Source: an uncultured Roseburia sp.
GTDB taxonomy: Bacteria > Bacillota > Clostridia > Lachnospirales > Lachnospiraceae
DNA length: 64,000 nt
Reading direction: 5' to 3'
Assembly (NCBI GenBank): GCA_964613325.1
Contig: CAZTGP010000004.1
Span: 23,768 to 87,767, forward strand
Of this stretch, positions 54,216-57,667 are shown one piece after another. A program made the translations under genes and the position numbers. Position 1 is the stretch's first letter. Every line of letters begins with the position of its first letter. The notes under the pieces were generated by a model, which saw nothing but the letters and a program-made list of their open reading frames with translations, was not told the DNA's origin and made no database searches.

Positions 54216-54845
54216 ATGATTGAAAAAGCCATTGAATATATAAAGAATTTTTTCTGTGAGGAATATAGTGGACATGATTATTGGCATTCCATGCGAGTGT
54301 ACCATACTGCCACTGAGCTTGCTAAAAAAGAAGGAGCAAATATAATGGTTGTGCAGCTAGCGGCATTGTTACATGACGTGGATGATATGAAGCTGTCTCC
54401 GGATACATATGAGAATAAGGAACACGCGGTATCGTTTCTGTCGGATGCGGGCGTTGATAACGAAACAATTCAATTTGTGTGTAACATAATCGACGATGTA
54501 TCCTATAAGGGGAATGAATCTGTTTGCCCAGCAACCATCGAAGGAAAATGCGTACAGGATGCAGATAGACTAGATGCAATCGGAGCCATTGGAATTGCAA
54601 GAGCATTTGCATATGGTGGGAATCATGACAGAATCATGTATGACCCAGATATCAAACCTCGAACAAATATGAGCGCAGAACAATATCGAAAGAATAAAGG
54701 TACAACCATAAACCATTTCTATGAGAAATTGTTCAAATTGAAGGAGCTTATGAATACAGAGACTGCAAAGCAAATTGCAGAGAATAGAGAGAAGTATATG
54801 CATGAGTTTATTGACGAATTCTTATTAGAATGGAATGGAAAATGA
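54216..54845 (+). CDS. HD-domain metal-dependent phosphohydrolase (YedJ-like)
   Basis: GHDYWHSMRV, ALLHDVDD, VQDADRLDAIGAIGIAR and HFYEKL motifs. Confidence 0.9.
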   Translation: MIEKAIEYIKNFFCEEYSGHDYWHSMRVYHTATELAKKEGANIMVVQLAALLHDVDDMKLSPDTYENKEHAVSFLSDAGVDNETIQFVCNIIDDVSYKGNESVCPATIEGKCVQDADRLDAIGAIGIARAFAYGGNHDRIMYDPDIKPRTNMSAEQYRKNKGTTINHFYEKLFKLKELMNTETAKQIAENREKYMHEFIDEFLLEWNGK

Positions 54846-54972
54846 AAAATGAACTTTTTAAGACCAATCCAATCAAAAAATAAACTTTTTGACTGAATAA
54901 TAAAGAAAATACAACGAAAGTTTAACTTTAACTTGAACTTACACCTATATAATGATATGCTCTTCTTGATAA

Positions 54973-55140
54973 AAATAAACTTTTAATAGAAATAATTTCT
55001 TTGAGTAGAAATAAACTGCTGAACAGAGAAACGATTTCTTTAAATAGAAATAAACTATTGAACAGAAAAATGAATTTTTTGAATAAAAAATAAACTATTG
55101 AATAGAAGAATATATTTTCAAATAGAGAAAATGAACTTCC
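54973..55140 (+). repeat. AT-rich tandem array, nine ~20-bp units, upstream of the HTH-AlaA gene
   Basis: Units start at 54973, 54990, 55009, 55029, 55048, 55068, 55088, 55108 and 55129; AAAT(A/G)AACT recurs about every 40 bp. Confidence 0.75.
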
Positions 55141-55183
55141 GAGAGCAAATATATGGATTTAGAAGGAAAAAGGAGCGCAGGTT

Positions 55184-56698
55184 ATGGCTGAAGCAATATT
55201 TACAGAACGATTTAATCAAGCGATGAACAGACAAGGCGTGAAACAGGTTGATCTGCTTCGAGCGGCGAATGCTGCAGGAGTAAAGCTTAGTAAGAGCCAG
55301 ATTAGTCAATACGTAAGCGGGAAAGCTGTTCCAAGAGAGAATATTGGGCATTTTCTTGCGAAGGAACTGAAGGTTGATGTTTCGTGGCTGTATGGAAAAG
55401 ACACGAAATCGTTTGTAGCTGATATTGCAAGCCTTGACACCTTGTCGAAGGATAGCGATACGGCAGTGGAGAGGAATAAGAGTATGCGTGAATTTAAGAA
55501 GTCATCGAAGTTAGATAATGTGTTATATGATGTTAGAGGACCCGTTGTAGAAGAAGCGAATCGTATGGAGGAAAATGGAACCCATGTGCTGAAATTGAAC
55601 ATTGGGAATCCAGCACCATTTGGCTTCCGCACACCAGACGAAGTGGTATATGATATGCAGAGACAGATTACGGAATGTGAAGGTTACTCTGCATCCAAGG
55701 GACTTTTTTCAGCAAGAAAAGCCATCATGCAGTATGCACAGCTGAAGAAGCTCCCAAATGTAACAATCAATGATATCTATACTGGAAATGGAGTTAGCGA
55801 ATTAATTAACTTAAGTATGTCAGCTCTTTTAGATAATGGGGATGAAGTACTTGTTCCATCACCGGATTATCCCCTTTGGACAGCGTGTGTAACACTTGCA
55901 GGTGGCAACGCAGTTCACTATATTTGTGACGAACAGTCTGAATGGTATCCGGATATGGAGGATATGAAAAAGAAGATTACGGATAAGACAAAGGCAATAG
56001 TTATCATTAATCCAAACAATCCAACTGGAGCCCTTTATCCAAGAGAAGTCCTTCAGCAGATTGTTGAGATTGCAAGAGAACACCAGCTTATCATTTTCTC
56101 AGATGAGATCTATGATCGCCTTGTTATGGATGGAGAGGAACATGTGTCTATCGCGTCTTTGGCTCCGGACCTGTTCTGTGTCACCTATAGCGGATTGTCC
56201 AAATCACATATGATTGCAGGATTTCGTATTGGCTGGATGGTATTAAGTGGCAACAAGAGCATGGCAAAAGATTACATTGAAGGCTTGAATATGTTGTCTA
56301 ACATGAGAATCTGTTCCAATGTTCCGGCGCAGTCAATTGTGCAGACAGCACTTGGTGGATATCAAAGTGTTCAGGAATATATTGTTCCAGGGGGACGTGT
56401 GTATGAACAGCGCGAGTATATCTACAAGGCATTGAATGATATCCCAGGAATCACAGCAGTGAAGCCAAAAGCAGCGTTCTACATTTTCCCAAAGATTGAT
56501 GTGAAGCGTTTCAATATCGTGGATGATGAGAAATTCGCGTTGGATTTATTGCGTGAAAAGAAGATCCTAATTGTTCATGGAGGCGGATTCAATTGGAAGG
56601 ACCCAGATCATTTCCGTGTGGTTTATTTGCCTCGTATGGAAGTACTGGAAGAGGCAGTTGGAAAATTAGGAGACTTCCTCAGCTATTATAAACAGTAG
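55184..56698 (+). CDS. alaA: N-terminal XRE HTH fused to class I/II PLP aminotransferase (AlaA-type glutamate-pyruvate transaminase)
   Basis: KQVDLL..KLSKSQISQYVSGKAVP HTH; LYDVRGPV, LKLNIGNPA, INPNNPTGA, SDEIYD and SGLSKSHMIAGFRIGW (PLP Lys) motifs. Confidence 0.88.
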   Translation: MAEAIFTERFNQAMNRQGVKQVDLLRAANAAGVKLSKSQISQYVSGKAVPRENIGHFLAKELKVDVSWLYGKDTKSFVADIASLDTLSKDSDTAVERNKSMREFKKSSKLDNVLYDVRGPVVEEANRMEENGTHVLKLNIGNPAPFGFRTPDEVVYDMQRQITECEGYSASKGLFSARKAIMQYAQLKKLPNVTINDIYTGNGVSELINLSMSALLDNGDEVLVPSPDYPLWTACVTLAGGNAVHYICDEQSEWYPDMEDMKKKITDKTKAIVIINPNNPTGALYPREVLQQIVEIAREHQLIIFSDEIYDRLVMDGEEHVSIASLAPDLFCVTYSGLSKSHMIAGFRIGWMVLSGNKSMAKDYIEGLNMLSNMRICSNVPAQSIVQTALGGYQSVQEYIVPGGRVYEQREYIYKALNDIPGITAVKPKAAFYIFPKIDVKRFNIVDDEKFALDLLREKKILIVHGGGFNWKDPDHFRVVYLPRMEVLEEAVGKLGDFLSYYKQ

Positions 56699-56709
56699 AA
56701 GAATTATGT

Positions 56710-56794
56710 TAGTAAAACAGTGGATGAAACTATAGCTAGTAAAACAGTGAAGGAAACTTTTGCTGGTAAATTAGTAACGGGTATCCTTAGTAAA
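56710..56794 (+). repeat. 27-bp degenerate tandem repeat after alaA
   Basis: tagtaaaacagtggatgaaactatagc / tagtaaaacagtgaaggaaacttttgc / a degenerate third unit. Confidence 0.7.
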
Positions 56795-56798
56795 TGAT

Positions 56799-56837
56799 AA
56801 GCAGGAGTTTAAGTTTTTCTTAAATTCCTGCTTTTTT
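56799..56837 (+). terminator. Intrinsic terminator
   Basis: aagcaggagtttaag/cttaaattcctgctt inverted repeat plus T tract. Confidence 0.85.
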
Positions 56838-56941
56838 GCTGGAAAAAATTGATATTCCCAAATTCCTTCACTATAATAAAATGATGTGAGATAAGGAAAC
56901 GATAGATTTGTGGAATAAGAAGCACATCAAGTAAGGAATGA

Positions 56942-57667
56942 TTGGAAATGAATATGGAGCGAATCGGAATTGGAAATACAGCAGAAGTATTTGCCTTCGA
57001 GAGAAATAAAGTATGTAAACTATTTCATGAAGGATATCCTCGCGAATGTGCAGAGATGGATTATCAGAATTCAAAGTTGGTAAATGAGTTAAACATTCCA
57101 TCTCCAAAGGCATATGAGCTGGTGAAGCTGAATGGAAGAAATGGAATTATATATGATCGTTTGTATGGCACAAGTCTGCTTGAATTGTTAATGGCTGGGT
57201 CCCAAAATGCTAAGCTAGTTCCACAGATGGTAAATCTTCAGAAAAGAATGTTAGAAAAGCACACAGAAGCGTGTACCAATTATAAGGATTTCCTACGGGG
57301 ATTGTTGTATGAAGATAATGAAGAGACTTTGATAATTCGTAAGAAGATAGATGCGTTGCCAGACGGAGATTGTCTATGCCACGGAGATTACCACCCAGGA
57401 AATGTATGGATCAATGAGAATGGTGAAGTTCAAGCCATTGACTTTATGAATATCTGCTTTGGACCACGAGAATATGATATCGCAAGGACGCATTTTCTTA
57501 TAACACAGGGCGGCATGCCAGAGGGATTAGCAGAAGAGCAGGAGAATTACATCAGACAGATGCAGCAGATTCTTGGCAAGGAATATCTGAAATTGATGCG
57601 TGTAGAAAAGGATGACTTAGAGAAATATCTTGATGTAATTGCAATTTGTAGAAAATATGAAGCGTAG
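56942..57667 (+). CDS. Aminoglycoside phosphotransferase/choline-kinase-like family protein
   Basis: IGIGNTAEVF, CHGDYHPGN (Brenner motif), IDFMN and YDIART motifs. Confidence 0.85.
   Translation: MEMNMERIGIGNTAEVFAFERNKVCKLFHEGYPRECAEMDYQNSKLVNELNIPSPKAYELVKLNGRNGIIYDRLYGTSLLELLMAGSQNAKLVPQMVNLQKRMLEKHTEACTNYKDFLRGLLYEDNEETLIIRKKIDALPDGDCLCHGDYHPGNVWINENGEVQAIDFMNICFGPREYDIARTHFLITQGGMPEGLAEEQENYIRQMQQILGKEYLKLMRVEKDDLEKYLDVIAICRKYEA

Follow-up and report, generated by a model that had tools for sequence, protein, structure and literature searches.

The gene examined here raises the question of why a housekeeping transaminase would carry the DNA-binding domain of a phage repressor, and whether the same gene also delivers the enzyme without that domain. 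It lies in a stretch of 64,000 nucleotides (nt) from an uncultured Roseburia sp. (assembly GCA_964613325.1, contig CAZTGP010000004.1, positions 23,768 to 87,767 of the forward strand), which is called the window below. A single uninterrupted open reading frame (ORF) on the plus strand (55184..56698) encodes a product of 504 amino acids (aa), in which a helix-turn-helix (HTH) head of the CI/XRE type is joined by a linker to the aminotransferase AlaA. An earlier note, made from the DNA letters alone, had described this fusion and had proposed that an internal start yields a second, enzyme-only protein. Comparison with homologues makes it likely that the gene encodes an autorepressing AlaA aminotransferase that is made in a long form with the head and in a short form without it.

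The aminotransferase part comprises residues 101-504 plus the stop codon (55484..56698) and is of the AlaA-type class I (fold type I). Aminotran_1_2 (PF00155) covers residues 134-494 in the Pfam search (E 1.7e-55), and residues 100-504 match Escherichia coli AlaA (PDB 4CVQ residues 26-430; E 7.5e-175, 586 bits) over 405 aligned residues with 61% identity and zero gaps. The earlier note had called the enzyme catalytically intact, with its pyridoxal 5´-phosphate (PLP) lysine motif in place, and the gapless alignment bears this out: S339-K340-S341 pairs with the PLP-lysine motif SKT of AlaA (K340 codon at 56201-56203). Six residues (N279, D307, Y310, K340, R348 and R478) are invariant across 53 homologues; their catalytic roles are taken from general knowledge of class I aminotransferases. 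The best NCBIfam model, the alanine aminotransferase equivalog NF006230, scores 378.9 bits, below its cut-off of 534, and the substrate assignment therefore leans on the similarity to E. coli AlaA. This gene is the sole AlaA orthologue of the 3.36-Mb genome, the next-best aminotransferase being 29% identical. The enzyme body is thus apparently a bona fide AlaA orthologue, a glutamate-pyruvate transaminase, and apparently active. AlaA functions as a homodimer, and the 4CVQ entry contains two chains.

The head occupies residues 1-72 (55184..55399). In the window protein, the Pfam HTH_3 match is below threshold (16.3 bits against a cut-off of 23, E 0.0099); many homologues bear precomputed PF01381, PF12844 or PF13560 matches. 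Residues 7-74 match the N-terminal domain of the phage TP901-1 CI repressor (5A7L, 3ZHM and 6TRI; E 7e-9), which is the closest solved homologue of the head, and identity to CI repressors of Streptococcus, Staphylococcus and Lactococcus phages reaches 38-57%. An AlphaFold2 model built from a 53-sequence alignment places five helices at residues 2-17, 21-31, 37-45, 52-62 and 66-69, with a predicted local distance difference test score (pLDDT) of 84-95 over residues 1-70. R9, Q21, K37, S41, Q42, Y43, G46, P50 and L69 are invariant in the 53 sequences from two phyla, and the recognition region reads KSQISQYVSG. A GntR-type domain was not found in the window protein by Pfam at E<=0.01. The assignment of the head to the XRE fold instead of the GntR fold, as first read from the letters, is consequently upheld by the TP901-1 CI match together with the lack of a GntR match. 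The low-complexity linker that had been described after a HTH of ~70 aa is also present: residues 73-100 (55400..55483) follow the fifth helix, residues 74-99 are disordered in the model (pLDDT 33-38), and the linker is hypervariable in length and sequence among homologues. Membership of the MocR regulators was considered and rejected for want of a GntR head, despite the fold-type-I domain (PF00155, E 1.7e-55). In a phage collection, the closest matches to the head (45-57% identity) are MT839198, MT839381, MT838394 and MT838382 (H1-H4), which are unannotated 4-5-kb 'Bacteriophage sp.' records from human faeces; these may encode phage CI proteins, or they may be fragments of fusion genes that were binned wrongly.

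The fusion is not peculiar to the window. The best full-length homologues (>120) are all 485-574 aa long, mostly ~490-525 aa, and possess the head, which the public annotation 'aminotransferase class I/II-fold PLP-dependent enzyme' omits. A contig scan in which each species was represented by a single genome gave at least 592 stretches with relatives; fusions make up nearly all of the best 80 and come from Lachnospiraceae, Oscillospiraceae and Coriobacteriia (Collinsella, Olsenella and Atopobium). When the head alone was used as a query (residues 1-75), 158 matches were obtained in proteins of 277-882 aa; all 120 listed carry PF00155, and a head joined to other enzymes was not found among these 120. 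In a family sample that covers 150 genera of Lachnospiraceae with a single genome apiece, 45 genomes contain an AlaA orthologue, of which ~14 are fused and ~31 are enzyme-only; the first aligned position of the latter is query residue 96-101. In one genome of the family (G124), both a fused gene (L092) and an enzyme-only gene (L102) are present, which makes it well suited to a study of what the head contributes.

The phylogenetic survey that the earlier note had suggested reveals a conserved family that forms one clade and spans two phyla. A maximum-likelihood tree built on 63 enzyme domains nests the fused genes as a single clade among unfused Lachnospiraceae genes, with a minimum of three changes. 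This topology points to a single origin of the fusion from a stand-alone AlaA gene. Two enzyme-only genes inside the fused clade (L068 and L098) most plausibly lost their head secondarily. The fused genes of Coriobacteriia sit within the fused clade of Firmicutes, and their loci (L017-L080) retain AT-rich TTGAACT boxes and a Shine-Dalgarno (SD) sequence encoded by AGG-AGC despite a high-GC background. The nesting, together with the retained boxes and SD, suggests that gene and operator were transferred horizontally as a unit, and the fusion appears to have passed from Firmicutes into Coriobacteriia.

The main ribosome-binding site of the window gene in the long form is an SD sequence, AAGGAG (55170..55175), 8 nt upstream of the ATG at 55184. 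A second site is located in the linker, where the internal SD GGAGAGGA (55468..55475) is written across the codons V-E-R-N and its AGGA core lies 8 nt upstream of an in-frame ATG (55484..55486). This ATG encodes Met101 and would open a candidate enzyme-only product of 404 aa. Both the position of this ATG and the spacing of its own ribosome-binding site, as first described from the letters, are found in the sequence, and the ATG does coincide with the usual AlaA N-terminus, since stand-alone AlaA genes start at the same position. The earlier note had made its proposal depend on conservation of the internal ribosome-binding site in homologues, and both the SD and the ATG are conserved over 46 non-redundant fused loci, no two of which exceed 80% identity over the 60 nt that precede the internal start; the proposal thus withstands this test. 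Across these loci, positional information is below 0.21 bit from -36 to -14 before the internal ATG and rises to an island of 0.5-1.3 bit from -13 to -8, with the consensus RGGAGG, which is the sole information-rich stretch in the 36 nt. The internal ATG is kept in 43 of the 46 loci, and Met101 is invariant in 30/30 and 53/53 aligned proteins. The peptides that encode the SD island are varied (GE, GG, SG, ER, EG, KG and RS), the RS pair is written with the rare codon pair AGG-AGC in high-GC Coriobacteriia, and the GGAG core is found in all three codon phases (19/9/3). A motif that spans differing peptides and all codon phases points to selection on the nucleotides and not on the residues.

The predicted strength of the internal SD is that of a true start. 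Predicted pairing with the anti-SD sequence in the 16S tail averages -7.88 kcal/mol at the internal starts of the 46 loci, compared with -8.07 kcal/mol at the true starts of 21 stand-alone AlaA genes (p=0.95), -2.54 kcal/mol at 588 other in-frame ATGs of the same fused genes (p=4e-22) and -2.90 kcal/mol elsewhere in the linkers. The folding of the mRNA, calculated in 50-nt windows, is weakest at the internal start (-4.2 kcal/mol, against ~-9 to -11 kcal/mol in most other windows), and this dip has a mean z of +1.36 (p=4e-21). Low local mRNA structure is the usual signature of an initiation region. In the two revertants L068 and L098, this same SD and start are their sole start. These observations indicate that the internal ATG with its SD is not a chance feature, and that the second start probably also makes the plain, headless enzyme. 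Three lineages differ at this position: GAG stands there in L021 and AGA in L094 and L095, where a Met is found 3 or 7 codons further upstream behind a weak SD, so that in these three the short isoform is possibly lost or shifted.

Conservation of the site could alternatively reflect its history. If only the long form were made, the internal SD and ATG would be a relic of the stand-alone gene, or an SD-like pause that lets the head fold first. The single origin of the fusion from a stand-alone AlaA gene with an SD and a start at exactly this place fits such a reading, as does the disappearance of the exact Met from three lineages, and conserved Lys, Ser and Asn residues account in part for the A-rich, weakly structured beginning of the enzyme region. 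However, the linker has diverged beyond alignment while the distance between RGGAGG and ATG has stayed fixed; the motif is held through differing residues and codon phases, including the rare AGG-AGC of high-GC Coriobacteriia; its strength equals that of real starts; and a pause element has no need of an ATG. We consider the relic or pause unlikely, and a translated internal start is preferred.

The region upstream of the gene contains an array of short repeats of the form AAWT[G/A]AACT (54848..55137, plus strand), which we regard as candidate operator boxes. Nine good boxes start at 54848, 54879, 54933 (at the -35 element), 54974, 55010, 55049, 55069, 55089 and 55130, with degenerate copies between them, compared with 2-6 boxes in relatives. 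Between 54969 and 55118 the array has grown through tandem duplication: a 39-40-nt unit is present in 3-4 copies with 75-82% matches, and its repetition gives the array a 20-nt period. Degenerate alternate units contain the near-palindromes AGAAAT-A-ATTTCT (54988-55000) and AGAAAC-G-ATTTCT (55027-55039), which do not fit the TGAACT box.

The same boxes accompany the head throughout the family. Over 67 non-redundant fused loci from both phyla, the box takes the form AAATTGAACTTT, and the density of TTGAACT is 8.0 per kb in the 300 nt upstream of the gene versus 0.215 per kb in the remainder of these loci, a 37-fold difference. In each of 26 diverse loci of 4.8-7.7 kb, the sole cluster of at least three boxes stands directly before the fusion start. 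Among the 13 fused genes of the family sample, 12 have 2-6 boxes and the remaining one has a TAAACTT variant, as in the window, while 18 of 20 unfused genes have zero boxes and the other two have one. The revertants have no box cluster, and L068, a locus of the contig scan, has zero boxes. The spacings of neighbours in the same orientation peak at 11, 19-22, 29-31 and 40-42 nt, which correspond to whole helical turns; boxes occur in both orientations, especially in Coriobacteriia. In the 3.36-Mb genome of the window, the single cluster of at least three boxes is that at the fused gene's own promoter. The TGAACT hexamer is common to the boxes of the fused genes and to the half-site AGTTCA(T/C)G of TP901-1 CI, the operator half-sites of which are AGTTCACG (OR) and AGTTCATG...CGTGAACT (OL) (PMC7250872; PMC4941734). 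The co-occurrence of the boxes with the head, their phasing and the match to the TP901-1 half-site predict that they are the operator of the head.

Two other accounts of the repeats were considered. A structured element in the RNA leader was rejected: the boxes occur in both orientations, as would be expected of a site in double-stranded DNA rather than of an RNA element, they are also found upstream of the promoter, they are spaced by helical turns, and an Rfam scan of 54500-57000 returned no match at E<=1. A reading of the AT-rich array as CodY boxes was set aside because the cross-phylum TGAACT box accounts for the repeats. A further alternative is that another factor binds the boxes and that the head has a wider regulon, a protein partner or no DNA binding at all. 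The 317 matches to AATRAACT in the genome, which as single boxes cannot be evaluated, leave room for it; a search for a wider regulon, made on clusters of boxes, gave no second cluster in the genome or in the flanks of the 26 diverse loci. Against this alternative, the boxes come and go with the head, including in the two revertants, they are conserved together with it over two phyla, they match the half-site of its closest solved relative, and no other cluster accompanies them in the genome or in those flanks. We regard another factor as very improbable and retain the boxes as the predicted operator of the head.

The placement of the boxes relative to the promoter suggests the direction of control. 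The putative promoter (54933..54961, plus strand) consists of TTGAAC (54933-38), which is itself a box, a 17-nt spacer, an extended -10 TG (54953-54) and TATGCT (54956-61). Its predicted transcript start at ~54968 would give a leader of ~215 nt bearing most of the boxes. The same arrangement, a box TTGAAC followed after 17 nt by TGnTATNNT, was recognised by eye in L001-L003, L006, L007, L009-L011, L016 and the nearest relative L085, and most fused loci have further boxes between the -10 element and the start codon. A box at the -35 position is where class II activators act, and proteins of the CI type are capable of both activation and repression; the head could thus be an activator, in the manner of lambda CI at PRM, or substitute for -35 recognition, and the enzyme would then stimulate itself or act as a switch. 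However, the TTGAAC box already is a good -35 hexamer with an extended -10, boxes between the -10 element and the start codon are the layout typical of repression by occlusion or roadblock, and it is hard to see why a housekeeping transaminase should be under positive autoregulation. Activation appears improbable to us, and repression by the head is favored.

The identities of the domains, the conserved internal SD and ATG, and the boxes with their phasing, their uniqueness and their association with the head are established from sequence and comparison. They fit together in a simple working model, for which we infer DNA binding by the head, repression rather than activation, use of the internal start and mixed dimers. 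The phage-CI-type head sits on the N-terminus of AlaA by a flexible tether. Because AlaA is a homodimer, the enzyme body would replace the dimerisation domain of CI and present two heads. In TP901-1 CI, the lone N-terminal domain is a weak binder, and a dimer with flexible linkers binds two half-sites cooperatively and far better (PMC4941734). The disordered tether, 28 aa or longer, would let the two heads reach boxes that are one to four turns apart. The heads would occupy the helically phased TGAACT boxes at the -35 hexamer, upstream of it and in the transcribed leader, and this occupancy would repress the gene's own transcription, with negative feedback on the enzyme level. From the same mRNA, the internal SD and ATG (55468-75 and 55484) would give the 404-aa headless enzyme. 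The enzyme pool would then be mixed, with tight binding to paired boxes restricted to two-headed dimers and poor binding by one-headed or headless dimers, and the ratio of the two starts would set the enzyme level reached before repression.

Several points weigh against this model. A strict scan for the sigma-70 consensus listed no promoter upstream of the fused gene, and the window promoter is a consensus reading reached by comparison with homologues. The boxes of the window are mostly of the variant form AAATAAACT and not TTGAACT, and most of them follow the predicted promoter instead of preceding it. With -6.4 kcal/mol, which places it among the top 7.5% of positions of the coding sequence, the internal SD of the window gene is only moderately strong. 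The exact internal position has no Met in 3 of the 46 lineages (L021, L094 and L095), which implies that the short form is not indispensable. Since the fusion arose once, the conservation of the SD and ATG could be partly inheritance, though the rest of the linker has been fully replaced. Finally, the disordered tether offers no obvious path from the ligand state of the enzyme to the head, and strict 'trigger enzyme' behaviour is therefore not implied.

A more far-reaching version of the model is a tentative possibility, and we would not presently expect it to hold: the headless isoform would be a built-in anti-repressor, and the state of the enzyme or its PLP loading would also be read out to its own promoter. 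Since AlaA is dimeric and a pair of boxes requires two heads, the extent of repression would follow the squared fraction of the long form, a fraction that the two ribosome-binding sites would set. The open or closed state of the enzyme, or its PLP loading, would alter the stability of the dimer or the reach of the heads.

An intrinsic terminator-like hairpin (56799-56833; 56799..56843 with its T run; plus strand, from a sequence scan) stands 3´ of the ORF and implies a monocistronic gene. On the other side, the first box (AAAATGAACTTTTT, 54848) starts 3 nt past the stop codon of an upstream HD-domain gene (54216-54845). A terminator was not found in the intergenic stretch between this gene and the fused gene, and upstream transcription may therefore read through into the fused gene.

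The predicted system resembles known regulators in parts of its design. The MocR, GabR and PdxR proteins also link a DNA-binding head to a dimeric PLP-dependent domain of fold type I; their sites are direct or inverted repeats whole helical turns apart, and they regulate amino-acid and PLP metabolism (PMC5320631 and general knowledge). A comparative-genomics study of MocR proteins makes no mention of an XRE-headed AlaA family (PMC5320631). The head of MocR and GabR is a GntR winged helix, whereas that of the fusion is a CI/XRE five-helix HTH. The MocR body is a sensor domain largely without transamination, whereas the body here is a true AlaA orthologue and the genome's only AlaA. Compared with MocR and GabR, the predicted target of the fusion is its own gene, and a conserved internal start is available for a headless form.

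The head itself is homologous to that of TP901-1 CI, and likewise to those of phi13 and streptococcal phage CI proteins, and is predicted to recognise the same TGAACT/AGTTCA hexamer as TP901-1 CI. In both proteins the N-terminal domain is attached by a flexible linker and affinity is gained by dimerisation (PMC4941734), which in the fusion would follow from the AlaA dimer. The means of assembly differs: TP901-1 CI oligomerises by a helical hook and a C-terminal domain, whereas the fusion would do so by a metabolic enzyme. The sites of TP901-1 CI are a close inverted pair, whereas those of the fused genes are, for the most part, repeated in direct orientation at distances of one to four helical turns. 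In addition, the fusion has no MOR-type antirepressor, prophage or lysogeny switch.

PutA, BirA and NadR combine an enzyme and a transcription factor in one polypeptide and act on genes of their own pathway. They couple DNA binding to the state of a substrate or co-repressor, whereas no coupling is evident in the fusion owing to the disordered tether, and they are not known to be produced as headed and headless forms from one ORF. Such pairs of products are known from Bacillus subtilis lysC (alpha and beta) and from E. coli infB, clpB and cheA, where an in-frame internal SD and start codon give a shorter protein that is devoid of the N-terminal domain and is able to co-assemble with the longer one. 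Both products have been demonstrated for these genes, whereas the dual start described here is predicted from comparison with homologues. The domain dropped from the AlaA fusion is the DNA-binding head; the short form would thus also dilute the repressor, unlike the short products of lysC, infB, clpB and cheA.

A literature search found no paper that describes the family of CI/XRE-headed AlaA fusions. The name 'bifunctional HTH-domain containing protein/aminotransferase' (PRK13355) may refer to such proteins. AlaA joins pyruvate, glutamate and alanine, and is a central node of carbon and nitrogen metabolism. At this node, the fused gene would form a compact feedback circuit, in which a housekeeping enzyme bears the head that represses its gene, and headless subunits translated from the same message dilute that head. 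Fusions of this design occur widely among abundant genera of the human gut, including Roseburia-like Lachnospiraceae, Collinsella and Olsenella, and would be a natural example of a phage repressor domain recruited into metabolism. The predicted operator of helically phased TGAACT boxes is open to immediate testing, and the gene offers a test case for the tuning of regulator stoichiometry by in-frame internal starts. If the built-in anti-repressor were also to hold, the alanine, pyruvate and glutamate status of the cell, or its PLP status, would pass directly from the enzyme to its own promoter, and the fusions would represent a new class of trigger enzyme, consisting of a phage CI head and a core transaminase, that is common in human-gut Lachnospiraceae and Coriobacteriia.

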